DNA of 64,000 bases from Snowella sp. (GCA_035285405.1 JAYKJI010000366.1:5823-69822); one strand, 5' to 3'. Positions 5,676 to 62,784 are shown, counted from the first letter of the stretch. The notes: generated from the sequence alone by a model not told the origin. Numbers and translations are program-made.

Positions 5676-6227
5676 ATGACTTTAACTACTTATTATCAGT
5701 GGACAACTCAACACTATCACCAAGCCATTGAAGAGGGACTCTTTGAAGATGAATCAGTAGAATTACTGCAAGGCGAAATCGTGATTATGTCACCAGAAAG
5801 AGAACCCCATGCCTATTACAATAGCGAAGTAGCTGATTATCTGAGAGACTTACTCGGTAATCAAGCAAAAATTAGAGATGCTAAACCGATTACCCTTCCT
5901 AATAATTCTGAGCCTGAACCTGATATTGCTATTGTTCGGCCTTTAGGAAGAGAATATTTAGAACATCATCCTTTTCCAGAAAATATTTTTTGGCTTATTG
6001 AGTTTTCTCAAGCAACCCTTAGTAAGGATTTAGGAAGAAAAAAGGATATTTATGCTGAAGCTGGAATTATAGAATATTGGGTTGTCGATCTCAAAAATCA
6101 CCAATTAAGAATTTTTCGAGATTTGTTAAACCAGCAATATACTTCAGAATTGACCCTAAAGGCAGGAATAATTACCTCTCTTTCTTTTCCCAAAATCTTA
6201 ATAGAAGTTCAACAAATTATTAACTAA
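5676..6227 (+). CDS. Uma2 family (DUF820) PD-(D/E)xK putative endonuclease
   Basis: 183-aa ORF with 'EPEPDIAIV' and 'WLIEFSQATLSKDLGRKKDIYAEAGIIEYWVVD', the Uma2 core pattern. Confidence 0.8.
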   Translation: MTLTTYYQWTTQHYHQAIEEGLFEDESVELLQGEIVIMSPEREPHAYYNSEVADYLRDLLGNQAKIRDAKPITLPNNSEPEPDIAIVRPLGREYLEHHPFPENIFWLIEFSQATLSKDLGRKKDIYAEAGIIEYWVVDLKNHQLRIFRDLLNQQYTSELTLKAGIITSLSFPKILIEVQQIIN

Positions 6228-6262: not shown

Positions 6263-6877
6263 ATGTCCTACAGTGACTTTAGCCTTGGCTCTGTTAAAAA
6301 AGCATTTCAGCTTCAACTCATTGAAAAAATTGATTTATTTAAGGAGACATCAGATTTAAGTCCCAGCCACTTACTAAATGAAACTATAAAGGAGAATCTT
6401 CCTCTAGCCTTAGCGAGTAACACCGAAAAATCACGATCAGAAATGCTCATTACCCCAATTTTAATTGATCTACGAAGGCAATTTACTAATCGTATTGGTA
6501 TTTTTTCAGGTATTAATTTTACAGTTGATCCTGCTCAAGGGTTAAACGGTAACTGTGATTTTTTAATTAGTTACTCGGAGGAATTATTATTGGTAACTGC
6601 ACCAATTATCACCTTAGTGGAAGCAAAAAAAGAGGATTTAAATGGAGGTTTAGGGCAATGTATTGCAGAAATGATTGCAGCTCAGAGATTTAATCAACAA
6701 GAAGGCAATGAAATTACTGAAATTTATGGCGTTGTAACCTCTGGAACGGTTTGGAAATTTCTTAAATTATCCGAGAATCAAGTTTTCCTTGATTTAACAG
6801 AGTATTATTTAGGAGATTTGCCCAAAATATTGGGCATTTTATCCGTAGGAATAGATCGTGCAGAGCATAGGTATTAA
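6263..6877 (+). CDS. hypothetical protein, PD-(D/E)xK nuclease-like (paralog A of three)
   Basis: 204-aa ORF. Motif order is E ('TEKSRSEML') ... D ('NCDFLIS') ... ExK ('LVEAKKEDL') ... Q ('GQCIAEM'). By eye it is ~80% identical at protein level to 8049-8672. The nuclease fold is inferred. Confidence 0.6.
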   Translation: MSYSDFSLGSVKKAFQLQLIEKIDLFKETSDLSPSHLLNETIKENLPLALASNTEKSRSEMLITPILIDLRRQFTNRIGIFSGINFTVDPAQGLNGNCDFLISYSEELLLVTAPIITLVEAKKEDLNGGLGQCIAEMIAAQRFNQQEGNEITEIYGVVTSGTVWKFLKLSENQVFLDLTEYYLGDLPKILGILSVGIDRAEHRY

Positions 6878-6881
6878 TCTG

Positions 6882-8045
6882 ATGAGAATTTTAATGGTTA
6901 TTCCTGCATTAGGAAGTGTGTATGGTGGCCCATCTAAAATCGTTCTTGAATTAGCAGAATCCTTGGGGAAGTTAGATATTGATGTTGATATTGTGGCTAC
7001 TAATGCCAATGGCTCTACCACTGTGGACTTTCCTCTTAATCAGTGGATCACACAAAACCATTATAGAGTACAATATTTTTCTTATTGCGACTTCCTAGAT
7101 TATAAACTTACATGGGCATTGACTCAATGGTTGTTCGTCAACGTCCCTAATTATAGTTTAGTTCATACTCATGCGATTTTTTCATATCCAATTCTAGCTG
7201 CTTATTGGATATGTCAAGTCTATAAAATCCCTTATATTGCTACACCACATGGTATGTTAGAACCTTGGGCTTTAGCCTATAAGAGCTGGAAAAAGGAAGC
7301 TTATTTTTCTTTTCTAGAAAAACCCTCTTTACAAAAAGCCAGTGCTATTCAAATGACAGCATCTAGTGAAGTTAAGCAAATTCACAAACTTAGGCTAAAC
7401 ACTAAACCAATTTTTGTCCCAAATGGGATTCATTGGGAAGATTTTGCCTCCCTTCCTGACCCCAAAATTCTTTATCATCAATTTCCAGAGACTCAAAATA
7501 AGATATTAATTTTATTTCTAGGCCGTATTGATCCCAAAAAAGGATTAGACTTATTAGCCCCGGCTTTTGCCCAGGTACATCAAAACTTTTCTGATACTCA
7601 TCTGATTATTGCTGGTCCTGATAATACAGGCTTTTTACCCAAGGCTGAAAATTATTTCATTGAAGCGGAGTGTCGGGACTCTGTTACTTTTACAGGTATG
7701 CTGACAGGAGAGCTTAAATATGCGGCTTTAGCCGCTGCTCAGATTTATGTAGCTCCTTCGTATTCCGAGGGTTTCAGTATGTCAGTCCTAGAAGGGATGG
7801 CTAGTGGACTTCCTTGTATTATTACTACTGGTTGTAATTTTCCTGAAGCTAAAGCAAACCAAGCTGCCTTAGAGGTTGAAATTAACAGTCAGGCGATCGC
7901 GGATGGTTTACTATGGTGTCTGAATCACCCTGAAGAAGCTAAACAAATGGGAGAAAAAGGCCGCCAGTTTATTTTTGAAAATTATGCTTGGGATAAGATA
8001 GCCCTTGATTTAAAATCAATGTACGAAAATATTTTACTTTCTTAG
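6882..8045 (+). CDS. glycosyltransferase family 4
   Basis: The track ORF starts at 6858, but the ATG at 6882 (MRILMVIPALGSVYGG) lies 4 nt after the upstream stop and matches the usual GT4 N-terminus. 'VAPSYSEGFSMSVLEGMASGLPCIITT' is the signature. Confidence 0.8.
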   Translation: MRILMVIPALGSVYGGPSKIVLELAESLGKLDIDVDIVATNANGSTTVDFPLNQWITQNHYRVQYFSYCDFLDYKLTWALTQWLFVNVPNYSLVHTHAIFSYPILAAYWICQVYKIPYIATPHGMLEPWALAYKSWKKEAYFSFLEKPSLQKASAIQMTASSEVKQIHKLRLNTKPIFVPNGIHWEDFASLPDPKILYHQFPETQNKILILFLGRIDPKKGLDLLAPAFAQVHQNFSDTHLIIAGPDNTGFLPKAENYFIEAECRDSVTFTGMLTGELKYAALAAAQIYVAPSYSEGFSMSVLEGMASGLPCIITTGCNFPEAKANQAALEVEINSQAIADGLLWCLNHPEEAKQMGEKGRQFIFENYAWDKIALDLKSMYENILLS

Positions 8046-8048
8046 ATT

Positions 8049-8672
8049 ATGTCTTACAGTGATTTTAGTCTTAGCTCCGTCAAAAAATTTTTTCAACTTA
8101 ATTTAATTGAAAAAGCTGATTTATTTGCGAATTGCTCAGAATTACAACCTAGCCCGCTCCTCAGCGAGACCCTTAAAGAAAATCTTCCCTTAGCCTTAGC
8201 GAGCAATACAGAAAAATCCCGCTCTGAAATGCTAATTGCACCAATTTTAATTGATTTAAGACGACAATGTTTCAATCGTATTGGCATTTTTTCTGGAGTT
8301 AACTTTTCTGTTAATCCATCTCAAGGATTAAATGGCAATTGTGATTTTTTAATCAGTTATTCCGAGAATTTATTACTAATTACGGCTCCCATCATTACCT
8401 TAGTGGAAGCCAAAAAAGAAGATCTCAATGGCGGTCTAGGGCAATGTATTGCGGAAATGATCGCCGCACAGTATTTTAACCAGCGGGAAGAAAATGAAAT
8501 TAAGGAGACTTATGGTGTGGTTACATCAGGAACTATTTGGAAATTCATGAAATTGATTGATCGTGATGTATGGATTGATTTAACTGAATATTATCTGGAC
8601 AATTTACCCAAAATCTTAGGTATTTTAGCTCAGTCAATACCCAACATTGATTTTGCCCATTCTCCAAGCTAG
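8049..8672 (+). CDS. hypothetical protein, PD-(D/E)xK nuclease-like (paralog B)
   Basis: 207-aa ORF. It carries the same E/D/ExK/Q motif set ('NCDFLISYSENLLLITAPIITLVEAKKEDLNGGLGQCIAEM') and starts 3 nt after the GT4 stop. Confidence 0.6.
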   Translation: MSYSDFSLSSVKKFFQLNLIEKADLFANCSELQPSPLLSETLKENLPLALASNTEKSRSEMLIAPILIDLRRQCFNRIGIFSGVNFSVNPSQGLNGNCDFLISYSENLLLITAPIITLVEAKKEDLNGGLGQCIAEMIAAQYFNQREENEIKETYGVVTSGTIWKFMKLIDRDVWIDLTEYYLDNLPKILGILAQSIPNIDFAHSPS

Positions 8673-8695
8673 ATATCCAGACTAGAAGTCATCCT

Positions 8696-9298
8696 ATGGC
8701 ATACAGTCAGTTCACCTTTAGTAAAGTCAAGGAACAGTTTGATCTCACGATCGCGGAAGGTATCCGCTTTTTTCCTGAGACTATTTCCCCAGTAGCTCCA
8801 AGCCAAAAACTGCTGGCAATTTTGGAAGATCTACCCTGGGTGATCGCTGTTGATACGGAAAAAGCTCGTTCTGAGGTCATTATTAATCCGATATTGTTAG
8901 AGCTAAGACGGATACTTAATCAAAAAATTAGTATTTTTTCAGGAGAAGAATTTAGTGTTGATCCTGGGATGGGACTGACTGGATTTTGTGACTTTTTAGT
9001 GAGTAAATCACCAGAACAATTAGCCATAGAAGCCCCTACGATCATCATTGTAGAAGCTAAAAAAGCAGATTTAAAAGTTGGAATCGGACAATGTATTGCA
9101 GAAATGGTGGCAGCACAAAAATTTAATCAGGCCAGCGATCGCCAAATTTCGGCAGTATATGGTTGCATCAGCAGTGGAACACAGTGGCGATTTCTCAAAC
9201 TAGAAGATTCAGTTGCCACCATTGATTTAACGGATTATCCTTTACTTCCTGTAGATATTATTCTTGGTTTTTTTGTCTGGATGATCAAAGAGGGTTAA
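8696..9298 (+). CDS. hypothetical protein, PD-(D/E)xK nuclease-like (paralog C, more divergent)
   Basis: 200-aa ORF. 'FCDFLVSKSPEQLAIEAPTIIIVEAKKADLKVGIGQCIAEM' has the same architecture. Roughly 45% identity to A/B by eye. Confidence 0.6.
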   Translation: MAYSQFTFSKVKEQFDLTIAEGIRFFPETISPVAPSQKLLAILEDLPWVIAVDTEKARSEVIINPILLELRRILNQKISIFSGEEFSVDPGMGLTGFCDFLVSKSPEQLAIEAPTIIIVEAKKADLKVGIGQCIAEMVAAQKFNQASDRQISAVYGCISSGTQWRFLKLEDSVATIDLTDYPLLPVDIILGFFVWMIKEG

Positions 9299-9338
9299 TT
9301 CCCATAACGGACAAAATCATTTTTCATGGAGACATTTA

Positions 9339-9974
9339 ATGACCTTTCAAAACTACGAATACCAGTGGCAAAGTTCCCAAGCTGTACATTCCCATAGCTT
9401 TTATGCCCCTGTTCTTTTGTCTATGTTCCCCTCTCCCCCTAGTCAATCAGGACACCCACTAAAAGTGCTTGATTTGGGCTGTGGTAACGGTAGCTTAACT
9501 AACTTAATTTGCAATCAAGGCTTTGAGGTAACAGGAATAGAAGAGTCAAAATCTGGAGTCGAAATAGCCACTAAAACCTTTCCTAACTGTCGTTTTCTAC
9601 AACAAAACCTTTACTCTCCTCCCCCCCCCGAACTCTTGAACTATTTTGATATAGTGGTTTCATCGGATGTCATTGAACACCTCTTTTATCCCAGAGAATT
9701 AGCCCGTTTTGCAAAACAATGTCTAAAGCCAACAGGCCAGCTAATTATCACAACACCTTACAATGGTTATTTAAAAGATCTTGTTTTATCTTTACTTAAT
9801 GGTATGGATCGCCATCATACAGTCCTCTGGGATGGTGGACATATTAAGTTTTTCTCGGTAAAAACCCTTTCTCAATTGCTTCAAGAAGAAGGTTTTGCGG
9901 ATTTGCGGTTTAAATTTGCTGGGCGTTTACCCTACCTCTGGAAAGGTATGTTAGTGTCCGCTCGGTTAAAATAA
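9339..9974 (+). CDS. class I SAM-dependent methyltransferase
   Basis: 211-aa ORF. Canonical motif I 'VLDLGCGNGSL' and 'DIVVSSDVIEHL'. It contains a C9 homopolymer at 9620-9628. Confidence 0.75.
   Translation: MTFQNYEYQWQSSQAVHSHSFYAPVLLSMFPSPPSQSGHPLKVLDLGCGNGSLTNLICNQGFEVTGIEESKSGVEIATKTFPNCRFLQQNLYSPPPPELLNYFDIVVSSDVIEHLFYPRELARFAKQCLKPTGQLIITTPYNGYLKDLVLSLLNGMDRHHTVLWDGGHIKFFSVKTLSQLLQEEGFADLRFKFAGRLPYLWKGMLVSARLK
9620..9628 (+). repeat. C9 homopolymer tract inside the methyltransferase CDS (encodes part of the PPPP run)
   Basis: Direct read: t-ccccccccc-g at 9619-9629. Confidence 0.9.
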
Positions 9975-9983
9975 AACTCAACG

Positions 9984-10436
9984 ATGCCCAGTTTCCTTGC
10001 TCTGTTACCCAGAGCCTTGACTACTTTCTTGTATGCCGTTGCTGCTCTACTCAGATTTTATGGAAACACAGACACCGCCCCCTTCCCCCAACTGCCCTTT
10101 ACCCTCCTCGACTACAGTCTCCTGGCCTTTGCGCTGGGGACAGGGTCTCTCATGGTTAATCTCGGCCTTGAGTGGAACGCTGGAAATCGAAGCCGAAACC
10201 GAGAGATTGAAGCAAGAGAACGCGAGATTAAACGCGATGATTTTGCAAACGAGGAAAGAGAAAGGGCAGATCGAGAACGAAACCAAGCAGATCGAGAAAG
10301 AGAACGAGCGGCTCGCCGAGCTAGAATCCAAAATCGATTCACTGTTCTCCAAATACGGTATCACCTCGAACCTAGTGAACAAACCCAAGCAGCCTTAAAA
10401 GACTTTCTTGCTTTCCTCGAAGAGTATGTTGAGTAA
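9984..10436 (+). CDS. hypothetical protein with hydrophobic N-terminus and highly charged R/E-rich helical segment
   Basis: 150-aa ORF and the longest of several overlapping frames. The N-terminal hydrophobic stretches and the structured-looking C-terminus ('ALKDFLAFLEEYVE') favour this frame. Confidence 0.4.
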   Translation: MPSFLALLPRALTTFLYAVAALLRFYGNTDTAPFPQLPFTLLDYSLLAFALGTGSLMVNLGLEWNAGNRSRNREIEAREREIKRDDFANEERERADRERNQADRERERAARRARIQNRFTVLQIRYHLEPSEQTQAALKDFLAFLEEYVE

Positions 10437-10476
10437 AGACCAAAACTTTTGAATCTGTAGATTTTTTTGATTGATT

Positions 10477-11247
10477 ATGAATGTCTTAAGCCTTGCCCCC
10501 CCCCTACCCGTACTTGAAAGCTTAACATTGCCCGGTCAAGATCAACTCCCCTGTGATGATGGTGAACCCATGGAAACCCAACGCCACAAATTACAAATGG
10601 ACTTATTGATTGAAGTCTTGGATTCCTGGTTAGAAGGTAGGGAAGACGGTTATGTGGGCGGTAATATGTTTATTTATTTCAGCCAAGCTCAAATTAAAAA
10701 CCAAGACTTTAAAGGGCCAGATTTTTTCGCAGTGACGGGTGTTTCCAAGAAAGAACGAAAATCCTGGGTTGTCTGGGAAGAAGAAAAAGCACCGGATGTT
10801 ATTATTGAACTTCTTTCGGATAGTACCGCTAATCAGGATAAAACGATTAAAAAGGAGATTTACCAAAATAAAATGCGGGTCAGTGAATATTTTTGGTATG
10901 ACCCTTTTAATTCAGAGGATTTTGCTGGCTTTACCCTCAATAATGGGATTTACCAATCCCTCCCTTTTAATGAGCAGGGCTGGTTGGTGAGTCAATGTTT
11001 GGGATTAACCCTGATTCGTTGGCCAGGACAATATCGAGGGGTGGAAGCGATCTGGCTACGCTGGGCGACCTTGGAGGGCGAGGTTCTATCTACAGGTCAA
11101 GAGTTAGCTCAACAAGCTCAACAACAAGCAGCATTAGCCCAACAACAAGCAGCATTAGCTCAGGAACAAGTAACATTAGCTCAACAACGCTCTGACAAGT
11201 TAGCAGCCAAGTTGAGAGAAATGGGTATTAATCCCGACGAAATTTAG
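10477..11247 (+). CDS. Uma2 family endonuclease with C-terminal heptad-repeat tail
   Basis: 'PDVIIELLSDSTANQDKTIKKEIYQNKMRVSEYFWYDP' is the Uma2 core. The first ATG is at 10477 (the track used TTG at 10471). The C-terminus has (QQQAALA)-type repeats. Confidence 0.8.
   Translation: MNVLSLAPPLPVLESLTLPGQDQLPCDDGEPMETQRHKLQMDLLIEVLDSWLEGREDGYVGGNMFIYFSQAQIKNQDFKGPDFFAVTGVSKKERKSWVVWEEEKAPDVIIELLSDSTANQDKTIKKEIYQNKMRVSEYFWYDPFNSEDFAGFTLNNGIYQSLPFNEQGWLVSQCLGLTLIRWPGQYRGVEAIWLRWATLEGEVLSTGQELAQQAQQQAALAQQQAALAQEQVTLAQQRSDKLAAKLREMGINPDEI
10496..10504 (+). repeat. C9 homopolymer tract in the N-terminal codons of the Uma2 gene
   Basis: Direct read: g-ccccccccc-t at 10495-10505 (codons for APPLP). 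Confidence 0.9.
11119..11181 (+). repeat. 3 x 21-bp in-frame tandem repeat (caacaacaagcagcattagcy)
   Basis: Units at 11119-11139 and 11140-11160 differ at 1 base. The third unit, 11161-11181, is degenerate. Together they encode heptads QQQAALA / QQQAALA / QEQVTLA. Confidence 0.85.
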
Positions 11248-11301: not shown

Positions 11302-11646
11302 ATGCCCTACCTTACGCCACTATTGGATAAAGCTATAGCGAATCGCCGTCAGCAGAACGAACAACAACGTTTAATCGTGATTGAACAGGTTATTAGGTGG
11401 TTAGAATCTAAGGCTCAAAATTATGGCATTCCACAAGCCTATTTGTTTGGCTCTGTCGTTCGTCCCTATGGTTTTGGTCGTTACTCTGATATTGATCTTG
11501 CTGTAGAGACGATTGACCCCAACTATTTCTTTCAAGCTATGGCTAAATTGTCAGAGCGAGTTGGGCGGGATGTCGATCTCGTTGAACTTTCTAAATGTCC
11601 TTTCGGCGATCGCATCCGTCAACAGGGTCTGTTATGGAAACCCTAA
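11302..11646 (+). CDS. nucleotidyltransferase domain protein (MntA-like antitoxin family)
   Basis: 114-aa ORF. 'YLFGSVVRPYGFGRYSDIDLAV' is the minimal-NTase G-S...D-x-D motif. Confidence 0.7.
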   Translation: MPYLTPLLDKAIANRRQQNEQQRLIVIEQVIRWLESKAQNYGIPQAYLFGSVVRPYGFGRYSDIDLAVETIDPNYFFQAMAKLSERVGRDVDLVELSKCPFGDRIRQQGLLWKP

Positions 11647-11780
11647 ATTTAGCTTTATTAGCAGCAGATCTAGCCGCTCAACGAGTCACGATTGATCGGG
11701 TATTTGCCCTTCTTCTAGATCGTTCTCAAAATCTATCTCCTGATAATCCAGAAAAAGAAGTTTTTTTACAAAAATTGTAA
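11634..11780 (+). pseudogene. possible truncated HepT/HEPN-type partner of the nucleotidyltransferase
   Basis: An ATG overlaps the NTase stop (ATGGAAACCCTAA) and opens a 48-codon ORF, METLNLALLAADLAAQRVTIDRVF... From memory, the usual partner is ~120-140 aa with an RxxxxH motif, and no such motif is present here. Confidence 0.3.
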
Positions 11781-34866: not shown

Positions 34867-34976
34867 ATTCCCAAAATATCAAAATAAACAAAATTAATCA
34901 GGGGATACGAGGGGGAAAAGCAGGGATAATGAGTGAAATATCGTTATGGCTGTTAACTTAGGTTTCCTAAATTGTG

Positions 34977-36167
34977 ATGAACAAGCGATCGCTGCTGACT
35001 CGTATGGATGCTGTTCAATCTCCCGTCATTCCTCTTGTCGGAAAGTTGATTGCTGAAAATCCTGGCACCATTTCTCTCGGACAGGGTATTGCTTTCTATC
35101 CCCCACCGCCCCAGATTTTAACGGCGATCGCTACTAGTTTTGAGGATGTTACTAACCATCAGTATAAATCGGTGCAAGGGCTTCCCACCTTACAAACCGC
35201 GATCGCTGCCAAGTTAGCCCAGGATAATCAGATCACCATTGAGGCAGGCCAGAATGCGATCATGGTAACGGCGGGGGCCAATATGGGTTTTCTGAATGCC
35301 ATTTTAGCCATTACCTCACCAGGCGATGAAATCATTCTCAATACGCCCTACTACTTCAATCATGAAATGGCCATTCGTATGGTGGGTTGTCAACCGATCT
35401 GTGTACCAACTGATCACCATTATCAACTCCAGGTGGGGGCGATCACCGCCGCCATTACCCCTAGAACCCGTGCGATCGTCACTGTTTCTCCCAATAACCC
35501 CACTGGTGCGGTATATTCTGCCCAAGCCCTTCAGGAAATTAATCAACTTTGTCAGGGGCAAGGTCTCTATCACATCAGCGATGAAGCCTACGAATACTTT
35601 ATCTACAACGGTGTTCAGCACTTTTCTCCTGCTTCTTTACCCCACAGCGCAGCCCATACCATTTCCCTATTCAGTTTGTCTAAGGCCTATGGCATGGCTG
35701 GCTGGCGAATGGGCTATATGGTTATCCCTCAGTCTTTACTGTTGGCAGTTCAGAAAATCCAGGATACTAACTTGATCTGCCCTCCCGTCGTTTGTCAATA
35801 TGCGGTGATCGCGGCTCTAGCGGTGGGTTCTACCTATTGCCAACAGTTTCTACCCGAAATTACCCATAATCGGCACAGACTGCTCACTGCCCTAGGGAAA
35901 ATTTCAGATCTTTGTGATTTGGTGATAACCGAGGGAGCTTTTTATAGTTTTATCAAAGTTCATCTCCCCTACCCCGATCTAGAAATCGTGCAAAGACTCA
36001 TTCGAGAGCATCAGGTAGCCGTTTTACCCGGTTCAACCTTTGGCATGAAAGAAGGTTGCTATCTTCGTATTGCCTATGGAGCTTCACATCAAGAAAACAT
36101 CACAATAGGAACAGAAAGATTAATACAAGGGTTACGGAGCTTGGGTCAGGCAAAAAAAAGCAACTGA
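34977..36167 (+). CDS. pyridoxal-phosphate-dependent aminotransferase (class I/II)
   Basis: 'SPNNPTG' and the PLP-lysine block 'SLSKAYGMAGWRMGY' are present. The ATG is at 34977. Confidence 0.8.
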   Translation: MNKRSLLTRMDAVQSPVIPLVGKLIAENPGTISLGQGIAFYPPPPQILTAIATSFEDVTNHQYKSVQGLPTLQTAIAAKLAQDNQITIEAGQNAIMVTAGANMGFLNAILAITSPGDEIILNTPYYFNHEMAIRMVGCQPICVPTDHHYQLQVGAITAAITPRTRAIVTVSPNNPTGAVYSAQALQEINQLCQGQGLYHISDEAYEYFIYNGVQHFSPASLPHSAAHTISLFSLSKAYGMAGWRMGYMVIPQSLLLAVQKIQDTNLICPPVVCQYAVIAALAVGSTYCQQFLPEITHNRHRLLTALGKISDLCDLVITEGAFYSFIKVHLPYPDLEIVQRLIREHQVAVLPGSTFGMKEGCYLRIAYGASHQENITIGTERLIQGLRSLGQAKKSN

Positions 36168-39655: not shown

Positions 39656-40969
39656 CTAAAATACAAACACTAATTTAATTTGCCAATCGGAAGTTGTGGA
39701 CTTTTTGGGTGGCGTAATTTGGATTTGCCGAATAAATTCTCGAAAGTAAAAACGCCGTTCTATTTCTGATAGATCTAGCCAGAACTGTGGTATGGCTACT
39801 GCCTTAATAATTTTCTTGAGTTCTTCAGGCGGTAATTGATCTAATTGTTTTCGTAGTTGAGCAATTTCGGTTTTAAATTTGTAGATTTGCAGTTCTATTA
39901 TTTGTGGATCTAAGATACCTTGATTTTCTAAAGTGGGTAATTTCTGTATTGTTTCTTCCTTTTGCTGAATGGCTTGGCGGATGCCTTGTTTCACTTGATC
40001 CAGGTTAGGTAGATTTAACTGGGCGACGGTGGCTGGTAAATCTTGGCAAATTTGGCTAATAATTTTAAAGAGAATTTGCTCATAGTCAATTGCACTACAT
40101 TTTGGTTGACTCTGACAGTTGGCAGCCCGAAGATAAAGATAGGTTTTTGCCGGATTCTTTGTTTTTGGGGACTTCACTTGACTAACGGTAAAAAAGGATT
40201 GACAGACTTGGCAAAAAACTAAACCGGCTAGGGAACGGGGCGCACTGGCTGTTCTCGTAGCAAAGTCGCTACCTCGTCGCAATAGACGATCAATTTGGGC
40301 GGCTTCTTCTCTGGATAGGATAGCGGGATGATTGCCGACAACGACATCTTGATTGTGATAGCCTAAATTGCCTCGATAGACAGGATTTTTTAACCAATTA
40401 TGTCCTGTGGAAACAGCAATTTTTTTGCCATAACGTTTATTTAAATAACGAATGGCTTCTCGTAAGGAAGCGTACAGTAAATAATGCTCAAAAAAATCTT
40501 TAATGATGGGGGCAGTGGTACGATCTAAGATATAGCGACCCTGTTCTCGACGATAGCCATAGGGAGCTTTCCCTGGTGGTGGTAAGCCTTGAATACGATT
40601 GCGGGCATGACCCTGTTTTTGGCGTTGACGTTGCTGTTGTTGCTGAATATTTTCTAGCAGTTGGAGCCATTGCTGACGAGATGGGGGAGAGGTGGTGCTG
40701 TAATCTTGTTCGATCGCGATAATTTCAATTCCCAAGGCTTCTAAAGTCGTTAAGCGATCGCCGATTTGTGTTAAATTAGCCCCCAACTCTTCTAAACGAC
40801 GAACCAGTAGATAATTCGGTGGAGATAATTGGCAATCCTGTAATAAGTTTTCTAGTTGTTGATAATTGCCCAAGTCCACATAAACCTGATCTACTTCTAC
40901 TCCCCACATACAGCGATCAGGAGGAGATTCGAGCCAGGGATCACTATAAAGATAGGCAATAATTCGCAT
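39656..40969 (-). CDS. large serine-recombinase-like protein (resolvase N-domain apparently degenerate, recombinase domain and zinc ribbon present)
   Basis: The ATG at 40969 gives MRIIAYLYSDP. The recombinase-domain block is 'APYGYRREQGRYILDRTTAPIIKDFFEHYL...WLKNPVYRGNLGY'. The Cys cluster is 'CQVCQ...CQSQPKC', followed by a C-terminal coiled coil. Confidence 0.65.
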   Translation of the reverse strand: MRIIAYLYSDPWLESPPDRCMWGVEVDQVYVDLGNYQQLENLLQDCQLSPPNYLLVRRLEELGANLTQIGDRLTTLEALGIEIIAIEQDYSTTSPPSRQQWLQLLENIQQQQQRQRQKQGHARNRIQGLPPPGKAPYGYRREQGRYILDRTTAPIIKDFFEHYLLYASLREAIRYLNKRYGKKIAVSTGHNWLKNPVYRGNLGYHNQDVVVGNHPAILSREEAAQIDRLLRRGSDFATRTASAPRSLAGLVFCQVCQSFFTVSQVKSPKTKNPAKTYLYLRAANCQSQPKCSAIDYEQILFKIISQICQDLPATVAQLNLPNLDQVKQGIRQAIQQKEETIQKLPTLENQGILDPQIIELQIYKFKTEIAQLRKQLDQLPPEELKKIIKAVAIPQFWLDLSEIERRFYFREFIRQIQITPPKKSTTSDWQIKLVFVF

Positions 40970-41032
40970 CGTAATAGACCCAATCGGGACTGAGAAACGA
41001 GTCCGCGACACTTCCTTCAAAAGACAGTTATT

Positions 41033-57276: not shown

Positions 57277-60200
57277 TTAAGCAGCGTTATCTTGCTTCAG
57301 GCGTTGATAAACATTCTTCATCATAAGTTCTTTAACTAAATTCCCAAATGATTGGTCTTCCAGAATTTTTTCAAAAATCTCTTGGTTTTGCTCCATTCGT
57401 TCAATCAGTTTTTCCAGAAATGTTTCCTCAAAGGCAAATTTAAAGGTGTCAAGCTTGTTGGCTTTAGCCTGAGTTTGTAACTTTTCATCTTCTATCAACT
57501 CTGCCTCTATTTGCTCAAAAAATAGGCGATCTGCTTCTTCAAAGTCTGTGCCGAAACGCTCATTGAGTTTTTCGATAATGATGGATAAGGGGGCTTTTTC
57601 CTCTTTGGGCCGTTTAATACCTGCTTCAGTGACCGTTTCAAGTTCTCCGATTTCGCCTTTAACTAAATCAATTGACCCTTCTTTGATTTTTTCCAGGCGA
57701 TAATATTCAAGGGCAATTTCATCTACTAGCCGTACAGTATCCCCAAGGCTCCGTTTTGGTAATTTAGTTAAAAGTAACTTGGCATAGGCAAAGAATTTTT
57801 CAAGTTCTGCATCGCGGAAGGGCATAATCTGAGCCAAAAATGAATACAGGTTTGTCCATGTCCGCAGGCTCTTTTTGAATTCGTCCTGTTTATCTTCTGT
57901 TTCAAGGGCTTTATAACGCTCACAAGCGGGTTCCAATATTGCATAAAGTTGACTTTGAGCTTTCACTGTCATTTTAGTTTTAGGGTCAAAATAAATCTTG
58001 GCAAAAGTGTTAATTTCTGAGGTGAGATAAATCTGATATTGATCTAGTTTTCCCTTGAGGTCGTAGAGATGGTTGGGATTAGGTTCTTCTTTTAGAGTCG
58101 TTAATTCGTAATAGGGTTGGAAAGATTCAAGGATTGTTTCACGACTGTTCACAAAATCAAGAATGAATGTGTCTTCTTTACCTGGTGCTGTACGATTTAA
58201 GCGAGATAGGGTTTGGACGGCTTTAACCCCTGCTAAAGGTTTGTCCACATACATGGTGTGGAGGAGGGGTTGATCAAAGCCTGTTTGATATTTATCGGCA
58301 ACGATTAGGATTTTGTATTCGTCTTGTTCAAAAATTTTGGGGAGTTCTTTAATGCCAAAGCCTGTAAGTTGAGGTTCGCTCACACCATCTGGGTATTTTT
58401 CATCAGGAAATTCGGAGTCTTTTACTTTGCCAGAAAATGCTACTAAAATTTTGATTTCTTTGCTATAACCTTTTTCTTTAATGTAGTAGTTAAATTCCTC
58501 GAAGTAGCGTTTGGCATGGAGGCGGGATGAGGTGACGACCATTGCTTTTGCTCTGCCCCCAATTTTATGGGCGACACAGGTACGGAAATGCTCGATGATA
58601 ATTGCAGTTTTTTGGGCAAGATTATGAGGATGGAGGGATACAAATCTGGCGATCGCCTTAGCGGTCTTTTTTTTGTTTAATTCGGGGTCATCTTCTATGG
58701 CTTTGGATAGTTTTAAATAAAGTTCGTAGGTGGTGTAATTCTGTAAAACATCGAGAATAAAGCCTTCTTCAATGGCTTGGCGCATGGAGTAGAGATGGAA
58801 AGGTTCAGGTTGACCTTGACGGTTTTTCTGTCCGAAAATGGCAAGAGTTTTGGGTTTGGGAGTAGCGGTAAACGCGGAAAAGGAAATATTGGCTTGTTTC
58901 CCTCTCGTTTTAGCGGATCGGTCGGCATATTCGTCGATCAAATCTTCTGCTGTATAGTCTTCTGCTTGGTCTTCTGTCGCAGCTTCTTCGAGGGTTTGAG
59001 CCGTTAGGACTTCTTTAAGTTTTTTTGAGGATTCTCCTCCTTGAGAACTGTGGGCTTCGTCAATAATGACGGCATAGCGACGGTCTGGAAGGGTTCCAAT
59101 TTTATCGACTACATAGGGAAATTTTTGTAAGGTGGTAATAATAATGTTGGTACTGTTAGTGATTGCTTCTGCTAGTTGGTTAGCATCTTTGTCAATTTTT
59201 TGGACGACTCCCGCTTTATGTTCAAACTGATAGATGGTGTCTTGGAGTTGGCTATCAAGAACCAAACGATCGGTAATGACAATGACGCTGTTAAAAATTC
59301 GTTCATCTTGACTGTTATGCAGTCCAGATAGGCGATAGGCAAGCCAGGCGATTGAATTACTTTTCCCTGAACCTGCGGAATGTTGAATTAAATAATTATG
59401 CCCTGCACCATTATCCCTGGCATGGTGAGTTAGTTTCCGAACGGCATCAAGTTGATGGAACCGAGGAAAAATGAGGTTTTCTTTTTTGTGGGTGCGTCCT
59501 TCAAATTCGTATTCTTCAATTTGGAGATGAACAAATCGCCCCAGGATTTCCAGCCAACTATCTTTGACTAAAATTTTTTGCCAGAGATATTCGGTTCGGT
59601 AGCCGTCAGGATTGGGAGGATTGCCTTGGCCGTTTTGATAACCTTGTTTGAAGGGAAGCCAATAGGTTTTATCTCCATTAATACGGGTGGTCATATAGAC
59701 TTCTTCGTCATCAACCGCAAAATGAACCAATGCCCGTTTTTTGAAGGTAAATAATAATTCTTGATGGTCGCGGGTGGTGTTGTATTGTTTCTGAGCGTTT
59801 TTGGTGTTTTGTCCTGTGAATTGATTTTTGAGTTCGAGAGTGGCAACGGGTAAACCATTGAGAGATAAAACTAAGTCAACAGATTGTTTAGTTTTACTAC
59901 TGAAATAAACTTGGCGGGTAACGGTGAGGCGATTTTGTTGGTAGAGCTTGATAGTATCTGGGTTTAGTCCTGATTCGGGTTTAAAATAGGCAAGTTTGAA
60001 CTTTACGCCATAGTCGGTAATGCCATTGCGAATGACATCAAGGGAACCGCGCAAATCCATTTCTTTGTAGAGACGTTGAATAAATTTACTTTCAACTTCT
60101 GCACCATGAATTTTAGCCAGTTTCTCCCATTGCTTCGGCTGGCTTTTTTGTATGAATTCCAATACTCCAGCCTTGAACATACCCAGTTCGGCACTGTAGT

Positions 60201-60297
60201 CACTAGCATCACCTTCGGTATAGTCACCAAACTCAAGTAAGTTTTCAATAATGGCGGTTTCAAACGTTTTTTCTGATGTAATAGAATTCATAGTCAT
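57277..60297 (-). CDS. hsdR: type I restriction enzyme R subunit
   Basis: 1006 aa. The N-terminal nuclease motif is 'VDLVLSLNGLPVATLELKNQ'. Helicase motif I is 'HSAGSGKSNS' and motif II is 'VIIDEAHSSQ'. Motif VI 'QTLSRLNR' is present. Confidence 0.95.
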   Translation of the reverse strand: MTMNSITSEKTFETAIIENLLEFGDYTEGDASDYSAELGMFKAGVLEFIQKSQPKQWEKLAKIHGAEVESKFIQRLYKEMDLRGSLDVIRNGITDYGVKFKLAYFKPESGLNPDTIKLYQQNRLTVTRQVYFSSKTKQSVDLVLSLNGLPVATLELKNQFTGQNTKNAQKQYNTTRDHQELLFTFKKRALVHFAVDDEEVYMTTRINGDKTYWLPFKQGYQNGQGNPPNPDGYRTEYLWQKILVKDSWLEILGRFVHLQIEEYEFEGRTHKKENLIFPRFHQLDAVRKLTHHARDNGAGHNYLIQHSAGSGKSNSIAWLAYRLSGLHNSQDERIFNSVIVITDRLVLDSQLQDTIYQFEHKAGVVQKIDKDANQLAEAITNSTNIIITTLQKFPYVVDKIGTLPDRRYAVIIDEAHSSQGGESSKKLKEVLTAQTLEEAATEDQAEDYTAEDLIDEYADRSAKTRGKQANISFSAFTATPKPKTLAIFGQKNRQGQPEPFHLYSMRQAIEEGFILDVLQNYTTYELYLKLSKAIEDDPELNKKKTAKAIARFVSLHPHNLAQKTAIIIEHFRTCVAHKIGGRAKAMVVTSSRLHAKRYFEEFNYYIKEKGYSKEIKILVAFSGKVKDSEFPDEKYPDGVSEPQLTGFGIKELPKIFEQDEYKILIVADKYQTGFDQPLLHTMYVDKPLAGVKAVQTLSRLNRTAPGKEDTFILDFVNSRETILESFQPYYELTTLKEEPNPNHLYDLKGKLDQYQIYLTSEINTFAKIYFDPKTKMTVKAQSQLYAILEPACERYKALETEDKQDEFKKSLRTWTNLYSFLAQIMPFRDAELEKFFAYAKLLLTKLPKRSLGDTVRLVDEIALEYYRLEKIKEGSIDLVKGEIGELETVTEAGIKRPKEEKAPLSIIIEKLNERFGTDFEEADRLFFEQIEAELIEDEKLQTQAKANKLDTFKFAFEETFLEKLIERMEQNQEIFEKILEDQSFGNLVKELMMKNVYQRLKQDNAA

Positions 60298-60315
60298 TCT
60301 GCCTCGTCGAGACTT

Positions 60316-61695
60316 TTAGTTTGTTGTTTGATCTAGTTGAGGAACTTTAATTTTGCCTGTAACGGCTTCGCTAATCAGGGCGGTGCGATATTCTTTTTGG
60401 AGTTCGATAATACGTTTGGTTTTGGCAATTTTGGCATCAATGTGAGCCGTTTCTTTTTCGATATATTCGCTAATCGCCTTTTGTTCTTCAAGGGGAGGAA
60501 ATGGAATAGAAATCTCTCTAATACTATCAATTTGTAAGTATGCCTGGTTTGCTATCCAAAGAGCCATAGCATCGAACTTACAGCGAATATATTTACTTTT
60601 AAAACAGTAGTTTAAGTATTCTTTTTTGCAAAAAGATAGTGGTCTAATACAAACAATATTTTGATTTAAATAAGCGCGATTGAAATTATGGCTAATGATA
60701 CCAACTTGACCAACGGCTGAATTGACTACATCTGGTTTACTTCCAACAGTAGAAACCACAATATCTCCCGATGCAAGTCTAACTTTTTCAAATTCTTCTT
60801 GCTGATTATCAATTGCGATATAACTTGATCCGCTTTGGATACTACCATTTTTAATATCACTAGCTTTTACGATAGGAATGCCCGACTCGTTAAATTCACT
60901 AGATTTGAATCCTAAACCTTTAAAATATGTTGTTACATTTCTTATTTTCTGAATGTCCCAATGTTCAGGAATATCGCCAAGCCAATTGATCGCCGTCGGT
61001 TTTAATTTTACATCGGGGTTAATGCCTTTGGTGACAGCTTCATTGATAATCGCGGTTTTCTCTTCTTCGTACAGTTCGATCAGTCTTTCCTTTTGGGCGA
61101 TCAGTTGGTCAATCTCTGCGGTTTTGCGATCAAGGTAGGCGGCGATCGCCCTTTGTTCTTCAGGAGGAGAAAATGAAATTTTAATGTTAAGAAATTCTTC
61201 TTGCCCTAAATTTTTCATACTTGAGCTTGTACCTGTAGCTAATATTGATAACAATTCTCTAAACGATGAGCTTTTTAGAACAAAACTTAACCATTTTGTA
61301 TGAATATCTAAATTCTCAAAAAAGACTGTTTGCCAAAGTCGATCAGGCAAAAATAGATAATCGTAATCTTTTTCTACATAGCCACTTGCACCAACTAACT
61401 CTGGAGTATTCATTCGACTAATAATAATTGCACCCTTTTTAGGATTTACTTTTGCTCTATCAAGCTCCAAAGATAGTATTTCTTTATTTTCTTGAGGTTC
61501 AAAAACATATTTATAAACACAACTTGTTTTTAAGATTCCATAGCTCCCTTTAGATACAGGAATATCAATGGAATTAACACTTACTCCTGATTCCAAAGAC
61601 TTAATCAGATACTTTAATTTTTTGATTTTCCAATGCTCAGGAATCTCACCAAGCCAAGCAATGCCACTATCCTTATACTTTTCATACCGTTCCAT
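60316..61695 (-). CDS. hsdS: type I restriction-modification specificity subunit
   Basis: 459 aa with two target-recognition halves, each opening with 'WLG(E/D)IPEHW'. The central and C-terminal conserved helices are 'EEQRAIAAYLDRKTAEID' and 'EEQKAISEYIEKETAHID'. Confidence 0.9.
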   Translation of the reverse strand: MERYEKYKDSGIAWLGEIPEHWKIKKLKYLIKSLESGVSVNSIDIPVSKGSYGILKTSCVYKYVFEPQENKEILSLELDRAKVNPKKGAIIISRMNTPELVGASGYVEKDYDYLFLPDRLWQTVFFENLDIHTKWLSFVLKSSSFRELLSILATGTSSSMKNLGQEEFLNIKISFSPPEEQRAIAAYLDRKTAEIDQLIAQKERLIELYEEEKTAIINEAVTKGINPDVKLKPTAINWLGDIPEHWDIQKIRNVTTYFKGLGFKSSEFNESGIPIVKASDIKNGSIQSGSSYIAIDNQQEEFEKVRLASGDIVVSTVGSKPDVVNSAVGQVGIISHNFNRAYLNQNIVCIRPLSFCKKEYLNYCFKSKYIRCKFDAMALWIANQAYLQIDSIREISIPFPPLEEQKAISEYIEKETAHIDAKIAKTKRIIELQKEYRTALISEAVTGKIKVPQLDQTTN

Positions 61696-61697
61696 AA

Positions 61698-62039
61698 CTA
61701 AGCCACTCCATAACCTGAAAATTGACGCATAAACGGAGAATGTAACCCCAAAACAATATCCTCTTTCTTGACCCCTAAAGCCATCAACCTTTCCCCCAAA
61801 TCAAGATCCGTAAAATTCCGTTGAATCCAAACCTTCTCATCCCTAATATCAATATGAATATAAGGCGAATAAACATACTCCTTTCCCTTCCAGCCCACAT
61901 CTAAATAAAGATAATGATCCCCCTCCTTATCTAAGATTAATTCAGAAAAAAGATTTTCTTCCTTCTGAGATTGACTATAACCATAAATTTCCTGTAAAAC
62001 AGAAACCACCGCATGACGTAATAACGCTAACTTATCCAT
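61698..62039 (-). CDS. xisI: XisI family protein (copy 2)
   Basis: 113 aa. 'MDKLALLRH...DKEGDHYLYLDVGW...HIDIRDEKVWIQRN...EDIVLGLHSP' matches the XisI pattern. It overlaps the xisH stop by 13 nt. Confidence 0.85.
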   Translation of the reverse strand: MDKLALLRHAVVSVLQEIYGYSQSQKEENLFSELILDKEGDHYLYLDVGWKGKEYVYSPYIHIDIRDEKVWIQRNFTDLDLGERLMALGVKKEDIVLGLHSPFMRQFSGYGVA

Positions 62040-62440
62040 TGTCTGATAACCCCCAATTCTGGATCATAAATAATTAATTTTATATTTTGTTGTTGGATAA
62101 CAGCCTGAGCAAATTCAGATTGCAAAAAAGTATCATAAATCACATCAGGAACCGCTAAGAACAAATCCCGATCAGGCTCCAACTCATCCAACATAACCCT
62201 ATAATTCACAAACTGCCCCACCGCTACATGAAAAGCGAACATGGGAGAAATATCAGAAAAAGTTTTAATTTCAACCGCAATTTTTTTCTCCTGTTTAATG
62301 GCAGTTAATAATTTTTCAGCACCTAAATCAATATAGGTCGTCGCCTTTCCCCATTTCAAGAAAAACGGATCATCCGTCACGATCCACCCCTCCTGTTCCA
62401 AAGCTTTCCTCACCACATCATGAAAAATGTCCTTTGCCAT
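62027..62440 (-). CDS. xisH: XisH family protein (endonuclease-like fold)
   Basis: 137 aa. 'MAKDIFHDVVRKALEQEGWIVTDDP...YIDLGAEKLL...KIAVEIKTF' has the XisH N-terminus with a D...ExK arrangement. Confidence 0.85.
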   Translation of the reverse strand: MAKDIFHDVVRKALEQEGWIVTDDPFFLKWGKATTYIDLGAEKLLTAIKQEKKIAVEIKTFSDISPMFAFHVAVGQFVNYRVMLDELEPDRDLFLAVPDVIYDTFLQSEFAQAVIQQQNIKLIIYDPELGVIRQWIS

Positions 62441-62444
62441 AATT

Positions 62445-62780
62445 TTAAGCTACTCCATAATCAGTATAAGGACGTTTATGGGGAGCCTGTAACCCTAAAA
62501 CAATATCCAGTCGTTCAACCCCCATCGTCACCAAATCCTCAGCAGGATTAAGATCCGTTGCATTTTGCTGAAGCCAGATCTTGCCATCCTTAATATCAAA
62601 ATGAATAATCGTAAAATAAATCCGTTGAGAACCATTCCAACCCACATAGACCCAAAGATAATGATCTCGTTCCTGATCAAAAATCAATTGAGATTCTCGA
62701 TCCTTTTTCTTCCGCTCATCCGTATCATAACGAGTCAACAAATCCCGAATCAATTGACAATAAAAAGTTAGTTTATCCAT
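62445..62780 (-). CDS. xisI: XisI family protein (copy 1)
   Basis: 111 aa. 'MDKLTFYCQLI...DQERDHYLWVYVGW...HFDIKDGKIWLQQN...LDIVLGLQAPHKRPYTDYGVA'. Confidence 0.85.
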   Translation of the reverse strand: MDKLTFYCQLIRDLLTRYDTDERKKKDRESQLIFDQERDHYLWVYVGWNGSQRIYFTIIHFDIKDGKIWLQQNATDLNPAEDLVTMGVERLDIVLGLQAPHKRPYTDYGVA

Positions 62781-62784
62781 TGCA

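Follow-up and report, generated by a model that had tools for sequence, protein, structure and literature searches.

We analysed a stretch of 64,000 nucleotides from Snowella sp. (GCA_035285405.1 JAYKJI010000366.1:5823-69822; referred to as the window), in which three similar genes, called here A, B and C, lie between positions 6,263 and 9,298 together with a GT4 glycosyltransferase gene. From sequence conservation and a structure model, their products are predicted to be stand-alone PD-(D/E)xK proteins that resemble the N-terminal nuclease domain of HsdR (HsdR-N) and carry an intact active-site signature. Profile and similarity searches place them as three members, from two subfamilies, of a large, essentially cyanobacteria-specific family, the same as that catalogued under the accessory profile 'PD-DExK'. 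The family has no fixed partner gene and is found tightly co-directional with unrelated operons. The reading that we favour, with a probability of about 55%, is that A, B and C would be accessory solo nucleases, similar to Uma2, that ride as passengers in a hypervariable glycan island and act in a restriction-like or addiction-like way.

When A, B and C were compared with Pfam, NCBIfam and PHROGs, no family model matched, and for 56 family members scanned one by one at E ≤ 10 Pfam yielded nothing above noise. Searching the sequences of PDB chains brought up nothing meaningful. The PADLOC profile PDLC01472 'PD_DExK' matched all three proteins (E 5.4e-52 for A, 4e-49 for B and 8.6e-50 for C) over residues ~54-200, so covering nearly all of its 146 positions. 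PADLOC lists this profile as a CRISPR-Cas associated accessory, and it is derived from CRISPR-Cas profile sets. An earlier reading of this DNA made without database searches (the sequence-only reading) had recognised no named family; given the PADLOC match at E about 1e-50, that statement had to be given up.

A structure model of A was built with AlphaFold2 (AF2) from a 56-sequence alignment, and had a pLDDT of 94 and a pTM of 0.92. The modelled core has the order alpha-beta-beta-beta-alpha-beta (helix 55-73, strands 79-85, 97-103 and 114-120, helix 127-146, strand 153-159). It is preceded by a conserved N-terminal element of ~50 residues that is not covered by PDLC01472. When the model was run against the PDB with Foldseek, the nuclease domains of the type IIG enzymes BpuSI, DrdV and BsaXI were found, along with 3ijm and Bse634I. 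The TM-scores were modest (~0.47 over ~155 alignment columns for BpuSI); as modelled, the fold class is clear, without a close structural relative. Foldseek also matched two mitoribosomal chains, '5' and 's', which we take to be mL37 and mL65. The mL65/mL37 pair has been described as a pseudo-dimer of 'repurposed endonucleases' (review, PMC8998825). Fold matches in the viral library were weak, and every named one was a PD-(D/E)xK nuclease.

Conservation of the predicted active site was scored over representatives of 150 clusters at 50% identity (counts are over 150 or 151). E55 was kept in 144/150 (96%), D99 in 148/150 (99%), E120 in 144/151 (95%), K122 in 137/151 (91%) and Q132 in 138/151. 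In the model E55 lies on helix 1, D99 on strand 2 and E120-x-K122 on strand 3, which match the canonical positions. The sequence-only reading had proposed a PD-(D/E)xK nuclease from four ordered motifs, with a D to ExK spacing of about 21 residues. All four are present in that order, D99 and E120 are 21 residues apart, and the motif residues E55, D99, E120, K122 and Q132 are retained in 91-99% of the homologs. Together with the AF2 fold and the restriction-nuclease matches of Foldseek, this upholds the assignment. One detail of it changed: within the fourth motif, 'GQCIAEM', the conserved residues are Q132 and C133 (149/151) and not E136, the E of the motif. Because only 73/151 relatives keep E136, it is probably not catalytic.

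Two near-invariant cysteines stand beside the active-site residues in these diverse representatives, namely C98 (136/150) and the C133 just mentioned. In gene A, C98-D99 is encoded at 6554-6559 and Q132-C133 at 6656-6661, and the same positions are occupied in B and C. The pair may form a disulfide, bind a metal or work as a redox switch.

A likeness of the three proteins to the HsdR N-terminus encoded in the same window had also been pointed out. In a direct profile comparison, the family profile and that N-terminus gave a non-significant E of 0.66, with only the columns CDFLIS/VDLVLS aligned. The likeness was recovered through an intermediate, a 206-aa Planktothrix protein (L090:4778-5395) that passes the Pfam HSDR_N model (31 bits, cut-off 25.1). 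The family profile aligned to this protein with a probability of 92% and E 5.8e-7 over 93 columns, covering the D, ExK and Q motifs. Hence, the resemblance stands by way of the intermediate, and fails in the direct comparison. The window's own HsdR scores 56 bits to HSDR_N; neither A, B and C nor any of the 56 members matched this model, even at E ≤ 10. Some databases label family members 'HsdR N-terminal domain-containing'.

The HsdR N-terminal domain (PF04313, PF13588) and the type IIG nucleases have in common with A, B and C the fold and the motif order, with D on strand 2, ExK on strand 3 and Q on the next helix. Unlike HsdR, A, B and C are only ~200 aa long and stand alone, without a helicase motor and without HsdM or HsdS partners; they also carry the extra N-terminal element and the two cysteines. 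It may be noted that a complete type I restriction-modification (R-M) system is present at 57277-63993 on the minus strand, ~48 kb from A, B and C. It comprises hsdR (1006 aa; HSDR_N, SWI2/SNF2 and ResIII), hsdS (Methylase_S) and hsdM (N6_Mtase), which extends to the end of the window.

The open reading frames (ORFs) were examined for their relationship with one another. As first described, they are paralogs of about 200 aa, two of which flank the GT4 gene closely, and C is followed by a methyltransferase gene. By reading of the sequence, the stop codon of A and the ATG of GT4 are 4 nt apart, the GT4 stop and B 3 nt, B and C 23 nt, and C and the methyltransferase gene 40 nt. Identity between A and B is 77% in a global and 80% in a local alignment, in line with the ~80% first estimated by eye. 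C was confirmed as a paralog, with an identity (50-51% to A, 49.5% to B) slightly above the ~45% given before. Because tblastn E-values between the paralogs range from 1e-54 to 1e-104, their relationship is placed far above chance. No fourth copy was found by tblastn in the 64-kb window.

By the Nei-Gojobori method, the proportion of synonymous differences (pS) between A and B was 0.71, which is saturated, and that of nonsynonymous differences (pN) was 0.16, giving a ratio of nonsynonymous to synonymous rates (dN/dS) of ~0.08. This agrees with the earlier impression that most differences between A and B are synonymous. For A or B against C, dN/dS was ~0.17. The DNA similarity between A and B (75%) runs from the ATG to a point inside the ORF, and the flanks have no similarity. 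A recent tandem duplication was considered for A and B, and was ruled out by the saturated synonymous sites and dissimilar flanks; the two are therefore old paralogs, without common element ends. A 15-nt motif, TTTxCCCAAAATxTT (encoding F/LPKIL), occurs at 6185-6199 near the 3' end of the Uma2 gene upstream of A and at 6817-6831 and 8603-8617, the latter two being equivalent 3' positions of A and B; it may reflect chance or a common C-terminal helix motif.

The size and range of the family were then assessed. Protein matches at 90% clustering numbered more than 7,900 for C and 1,914 for A. A HMMER scan of 1.84 billion cluster representatives gave 2,870 clusters (counted at 50% identity) at E ≤ 1e-3 and 480 at E ≤ 1e-30, the matched proteins being nearly all ~200 aa. 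Among the best 80 loci, taken from contigs of one genome per species, 78 were cyanobacterial, and several genomes had 2-3 loci. The other two were in metagenome-assembled genomes (MAGs) of a Methylococcaceae bacterium (L080) and of Candidatus Parabeggiatoa (L081). Their homologs are full-length and 54-57% identical to A, which suggests cross-phylum transfer, or possibly a binning error. The family was present in 24 plasmid records, all cyanobacterial. No match appeared in 50,697 phage records or in IMG/VR, and, with the viral fold matches also weak, a phage origin was ruled out. The A/B subfamily shows 78-79% identity to proteins of Synechocystis sp. LKSZ1 and Prochlorothrix hollandica, and members of the C subfamily are ~70% identical across Nostocales and Oscillatoriales.

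When the genomic neighbourhoods were mapped, 83 non-redundant loci showed 67 different neighbour pairs. A co-directional neighbour lay within 150 nt at 57 of the 83 loci, and the gene was embedded on both sides at 21 of the 76 loci having two neighbours. A Pfam census of 150 immediate neighbours gave 29 ABC-transporter permeases, 13 Uma2 genes, 6 class-V aminotransferases and 2 GT4 genes; most of the permeases belong to orthologous loci of Microcoleus and Nostoc, in which two permease genes enclose the family gene. Only a handful of the 150 were defence components (two Cmr3, one Csx1; also BrxH, DpdJ and a type II restriction endonuclease). A second family copy was present within 6 kb at 5 of 80 genome loci; clustering of paralogs is thus recurrent, and the triple is unusual. 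The family is multi-copy and occurs in many contexts.

The surroundings of C-type genes are equally varied. In Tolypothrix the gene is beside tpiA and a GTPase gene, in Scytonema it follows a YoeB toxin gene, and in Phormidium it lies between a WD40 gene and an operon of the xanthine-dehydrogenase type. In Cylindrospermopsis it is beside a methyltransferase gene and a DUF29 gene, in the same fixed housekeeping neighbourhood in all assemblies read. A conserved pair of C with the methyltransferase seemed possible from the window and Cylindrospermopsis, and was rejected when the three further contexts were found to lack a methyltransferase. Hence, the adjacency noted earlier is real, and the methyltransferase beside C in the window is not a partner. 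A conserved module of GT4 and nuclease was also rejected: the GT4 proteins of the Prochlorothrix and Pseudanabaena loci are only 30-34% identical to that of the window, and GT4 is rare as a neighbour overall (2/150). There was no indication of a type II R-M pair, since the adjacent methyltransferase is of the Methyltransf_23/11 kind and not a DNA methyltransferase, and no methyltransferase recurs as a neighbour. Nor was there toxin-antitoxin pairing; no conserved small partner was found in the 83 loci, where the sole enriched neighbour is Uma2 (6.5%).

Two plasmids carry family members in other settings. On pMIC7113.03 of Allocoleopsis franciscana PCC 7113 (L089, 9001-10269), two tandem copies, 25-28% identical to A, lie between csx7 and a RAMP gene in a type III CRISPR effector operon. 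In these copies E replaces the D of strand 2 ('PEY'), and the ExK and QCLAEM are kept. The locus at one point looked like a triple of 206-aa genes; the third proved to be unrelated, leaving two family members. On plasmid p4 of Planktothrix agardhii (L090, 800-6603), an HsdR_N gene, a Uma2 gene and a family gene follow one another and separate the DUF1156 gene from the DUF499 gene in a defence-type operon with a helicase. The family gene there overlaps the Uma2 gene by 11 nt, and the operon is also interrupted by two PIN-domain genes.

Selection was estimated by comparison with sister strains. In these comparisons dS was unsaturated (0.23-0.40), so that dN/dS is directly comparable between genes. 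The values were 0.05 for A, 0.11 for B and 0.08 for C (C against contig L095), while in the same strain pairs they were 0.14 for the methyltransferase, 0.20 for GT4 and 0.26 for Uma2. Because of this difference (0.05-0.11 against 0.14-0.26), A, B and C are the most constrained genes of the segment, above the neighbouring sugar genes. The selected function suspected from the retention of three intact copies is thus supported.

B is 89% identical (local) to a protein of a Pseudanabaena MAG, and C 82% to a Cylindrospermopsis protein; both pairs have pS of ~0.61, below the ~0.72-0.75 of the paralogs. By contrast, a housekeeping aminotransferase of the window (34974-36167) is only 61-67% identical to those of its nearest named relatives, Microcystaceae, Snowella, Crocosphaera and Synechocystis, and 92% to one metagenome protein. 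This places the source organism in a sparsely sampled cyanobacterial lineage and not among the heterocystous cyanobacteria; an origin in Nostocales, which the best named match of C had suggested, was given up. Family genes have 35-42% GC whatever the host. In Prochlorothrix the GC fraction is 0.36 for the family gene and 0.59-0.69 for the initial 5 kb of the locus as fetched, which precedes the sugar genes. The similarity, pS and GC patterns indicate horizontal spread among cyanobacteria, combined with strong constraint.

A-type homologs of Prochlorothrix hollandica (L001, 8001-8615) and Synechocystis sp. LKSZ1 (L007, 8001-8615) lie in glycan loci that also hold at least three Uma2 genes, a DUF29 gene, and insertion sequence elements or TnpB. 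Their GC content is lower by 20-30 points than that of the opening 5 kb of L001 and the final 3 kb of L007, which points to flexible islands acquired recently. Over its initial ~8 kb our window has 34-36% GC, against 41% overall.

Uma2 genes were found beside family genes at 10 of 153 adjacent positions, compared with 7 of 415 genes at least three positions away (odds ratio 4.1, Fisher p 0.005, ignoring kinship of the genomes). Makarova et al. in 2009 regarded Uma2 as a likely solo toxin, rich in cyanobacteria, rarely accompanied by an antitoxin and forming paralog cassettes, and proposed a toxin-like stabilisation for it (PMC2701414). The A/B/C family resembles Uma2/DUF820 (PF05685) in size, superfamily, cyanobacterial expansion, lack of a regular partner and occurrence in islands, and it too forms paralog cassettes. 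It belongs to a different, HsdR-N-like branch of the superfamily: A, B and C gave no match to PF05685, whose E-values for the flanking genes are 1e-31 and 4e-22. They are also under stronger constraint than the neighbouring Uma2. In the 3' part of the second Uma2 gene of the locus there is a 21-nt tandem repeat (11115-11188, 3.5 copies), which encodes C-terminal QQQAALAQ repeats.

Table 1. Features of the A/B/C segment and its immediate surroundings (positions in the window)
Feature	Position	Strand	Basis
Uma2-family putative endonuclease, 35-nt gap upstream of A	5676..6227	+	Pfam PF05685, E 1.1e-31
Paralog A, 204 aa, A/B subfamily; predicted stand-alone HsdR-N-like PD-(D/E)xK nuclease	6263..6877	+	ORF, PADLOC, AF2
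GT4 glycosyltransferase between A and B	6882..8045	+	Pfam Glycos_transf_1 + Glyco_transf_4
Strain-variable cassette (GT4 body + B + C)	7012..9338	+	blastn block map
Paralog B, 207 aa, A/B subfamily	8049..8672	+	ORF, PADLOC
Paralog C, 200 aa, second subfamily	8696..9298	+	ORF, PADLOC
S-adenosylmethionine (SAM) methyltransferase (Methyltransf_23 type), right-hand conserved flank	9339..9974	+	Pfam
Second Uma2-family gene at the locus	10471..11247	+	Pfam PF05685, E 4.3e-22; kept in sister loci

The sister loci are metagenomic contigs of close relatives (L091-L097), and they differ in gene order. The window reads Uma2-A-GT4-B-C-methyltransferase, and L091-L094 read Uma2-A-GT4-epimerase-methyltransferase, their GT4 being a different allele. 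L095 and L096 have no A and read Uma2-GT4-B-C, followed by another methyltransferase. L097 reads GT4-B-C-epimerase-methyltransferase, with the methyltransferase gene frameshifted and C truncated at nt ~348. The A orthologs of sister strains are 96-98% identical; B is missing from L091-L094 and present in L095-L097. The bracketing of GT4 described earlier does not hold up as a functional arrangement, since strains carry A without B and C, or B and C without A, and in other genomes most neighbours have nothing to do with sugars.

Against L091, the window showed 87% identity as far as 7012, a stretch that takes in Uma2, A and ~130 nt at the start of GT4. The GT4 body was ~70% identical (a partial match), 8046-9337 had no ortholog, and an identity of 94% restarted at 9338, one base ahead of the methyltransferase ATG. 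Against L095, identity was 94% from the ATG of GT4 (6882), the upstream Uma2 being only 76%. By these block maps, the GT4 body belongs to the swapped cassette. The block in L095 consists of the last 24 nt of GT4, B, C and the first 140 nt of the methyltransferase gene, and sits downstream of a second, partial methyltransferase copy. In L097 it consists of the last 70 nt of GT4, B and nt 1-348 of C, followed by a second GT4 3' remnant and the epimerase gene. The recombination breakpoints are at or near gene borders. As read from the junctions, recombination anchored in the adjoining genes has left the duplicated gene fragments and the truncated C behind as scars, and we infer a homology-facilitated illegitimate recombination and not self-mobility.

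No terminal inverted repeats, attC-like sites or target duplications were found at the segment, where the sole repeats are the paralogous coding similarity. No recombinase belonging to the A/B/C blocks was found. Rfam gave no match, and no tRNA or CRISPR array was found in the window. Boundaries of a transposon, an integron or an RNA element were ruled out by the absence of terminal or attC-like repeats and of an Rfam match. Of the 'gene-sized mobile units' suggested by the sequence-only reading, the presence/absence polymorphism remains; against it, the blocks carry fragments of neighbouring genes and have no repeats, target duplications or recombinase. When the loci were inspected as for a homing-type site, A was absent in L095 and B and C in L091, the flanks themselves being divergent alleles with duplicated fragments.

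Further genes of the region are recorded here. A Polbeta/MNT-type nucleotidyltransferase gene is present at 11302-11646 (region 11302-11780; Pfam), and in sister strains it is followed by a gene for a 153-aa HepT-like toxin. Since the window is without ~315 nt at 11757 relative to L091, the HepT partner appears to be truncated or deleted, and the toxin-antitoxin pair broken. An ORF of 150 aa at 9984-10436, which sister strains keep in its place after the methyltransferase gene and ahead of the second Uma2 gene, encodes a protein that is hydrophobic in its N-terminal half and contains a highly charged repeat (…REREIKRDDFANEERERADRERNQADRERERAARRA…); it has no Pfam match. At 39656-41020, on the minus strand, there is a large serine recombinase (Resolvase + Recombinase), which may belong to an integrated element.

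Under the favoured reading, that of solo nuclease passengers, A, B and C would be active metal-dependent DNA endonucleases, probably dimeric, and would be co-transcribed with whichever operon hosts them. They would take no part in sugar chemistry, and would persist as genes of nucleic-acid conflict through a restriction-like discrimination of foreign DNA. Alternatively, they may stabilise the flexible island that carries them in a toxin-like manner, as proposed for Uma2 (PMC2701414). Host recombination, anchored in adjoining genes, would reshuffle the hypervariable surface-polysaccharide segment from strain to strain.

Several points weigh against this reading. Nuclease activity and substrate are predictions for the whole family. 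Co-transcription is inferred from gaps of 3-35 nt and from a scan for independent promoters and terminators, in which the counts did not exceed those of shuffled controls. Recognised defence genes are only a minority of the immediate neighbours, and so the family is not clearly a resident of defence islands. At 70-80% across orders, the sequences are unusually well conserved for genes engaged in an arms race or in addiction, and this would suit a conserved cellular role as well. Finally, a solo nuclease without a methylase or an antitoxin would need some means of sparing host DNA.

Other explanations were weighed against the same data. It is possible, if unlikely, that the family consists of homing-like or recombination-promoting selfish nucleases, which cut alleles without the gene, or nearby DNA, so that repair copies the gene with its flanks. 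The family and Uma2 would then themselves create the breakpoints at gene borders and drive the exchange of cassettes in glycan and other operons. In favour of this, the genes are present in some strains and missing from others at intergenic sites flanked by conserved genes, insertion contexts with tight junctions are many, there are signs of horizontal transfer, and the blocks bring neighbour-gene fragments along, as in co-conversion. Seven of eight mapped identity breakpoints do lie within ~140 nt of a family-gene border (6882, 7012, 7976, 8002/8022, 9338 twice, and 9478), but the coincidence is weak, as 3 kb with three family genes puts almost any breakpoint nearby. A PD-(D/E)xK homing enzyme, I-Ssp6803I, comes from a cyanobacterium (PMC3424549). 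However, the duplicated flank fragments and truncated C resemble illegitimate recombination and not clean homing, the orthologous positions are stable within Microcoleus and Nostoc, and a protein of ~200 aa has no evident long-target recognition domain. The long purifying selection and saturated paralog dS are also atypical of homing genes, which decay after fixation. The free-standing homing genes seg and mob of phage T4 and the recombination-promoting PD-(D/E)xK nucleases Rpn of E. coli serve as comparison systems: there, too, small nuclease genes lie between conserved genes, vary among strains and have mosaic flanks. The scars at A, B and C differ in being duplicated flank fragments and not clean conversion tracts, the family is absent from phages, and cleavage and drive, which are features of those systems, would be only hypothetical here. 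Somewhat more doubtful is the wider proposal that the family and Uma2 form a hitherto unnoticed class of free-standing, operon-intercalating nucleases of bacterial chromosomes, which would make breaks at or near gene borders and so drive, and spread through, the exchange of cassettes between strains, with the cysteine pair as a redox switch. If true, such nucleases would be an engine of mosaic variation in glycan loci and other operons, including type III CRISPR effector operons, and the switch would couple cutting to the physiological state of the cell.

A dedicated anti-phage role is no likelier than homing; the proteins would act as type IV-like effectors on modified phage DNA, or as accessories of type III CRISPR, the paralogs being specificities. 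The family profile is catalogued as CRISPR-associated, and divergent members, the two Allocoleopsis copies, lie inside a type III effector operon, another copy lying inside the helicase/DUF1156/DUF499 operon. Some neighbours match Cmr3, Csx1, BrxH, DpdJ or a type II restriction endonuclease, the closest solved folds are nuclease domains of restriction enzymes, and a type I R-M system is in the same window. Yet, in spite of the near-full match to the CRISPR accessory 'PD-DExK' (PDLC01472), most family members do not adjoin cas genes, a CRISPR-locus position being held only by the divergent Allocoleopsis copies, and the neighbours are mostly transporters, metabolic or housekeeping genes. There is no CRISPR array in the window, and no cas gene in the part around A, B and C that was covered with cas profiles. 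The proteins have no modification-reading domain and are too well conserved for genes typically caught in an arms race, and the intercalation into non-defence operons suggests the CRISPR linkage to be a by-product. It is less probable still that these are cellular nucleases of DNA maintenance (structure-specific repair or resolution in a polyploid chromosome) with diversified paralogs and meaningless locations. The very strong purifying selection, C-type proteins of exactly 200 aa with ~70% identity over many genera, and the fixed housekeeping neighbourhood of Cylindrospermopsis would fit such a role, for which no partner or immunity gene is required. Close strains nevertheless differ in presence or absence, and C is truncated in L097, so that A, B and C are dispensable; copies are borne on plasmids, composition and similarity carry signs of horizontal transfer, there are 67 contexts in 83 loci, and outside cyanobacteria the family is confined to two gammaproteobacterial MAGs among the best 80 loci. 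A true part in the polysaccharide pathway, for example as phosphodiesterases on sugar-phosphate polymers or lipid-linked intermediates, is highly improbable. A/B-type homologs of Prochlorothrix, Synechocystis LKSZ1, Pseudanabaena and the sister strains do occur in GT4/epimerase loci, and the GT4 junctions in the window are tight (3-4 nt). But the same loci contain Uma2, DUF29, TnpB and MNT/HepT genes as well, as flexible islands usually do, and GT4 makes up only 2 of 150 immediate neighbours in a family that occurs in CRISPR, transporter and dehydrogenase operons too. Moreover, L095 has the same GT4 allele without A, and L091 has A without B and C.

That the family is profiled and uncharacterised was already known, and the same habit was described for Uma2 in 2009 (PMC2701414). 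What is new is that the CRISPR-accessory label 'PD-DExK' is tied to an HsdR-N-like, operon-intercalating cyanobacterial family, together with a natural series of four alleles of one glycan locus and a conserved cysteine pair beside the active site. A, B and C are ordinary members of their family, and the window reveals no new mechanism. The CRISPR label is probably a by-product of the general habit of lodging in operons, and such incidental linkage bears on how lists of 'CRISPR-linked' and 'defence-linked' genes are read. If the proteins are active solo nucleases, they would be among the largest uncharacterised gene families of cyanobacteria, with thousands of proteins and several copies per genome. 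Surface-sugar islands are thought to decide the susceptibility of bloom-forming cyanobacteria to phages and grazers. The four alleles of the glycan locus offer a system for asking whether nucleases of this family stabilise, defend or reshuffle such islands.

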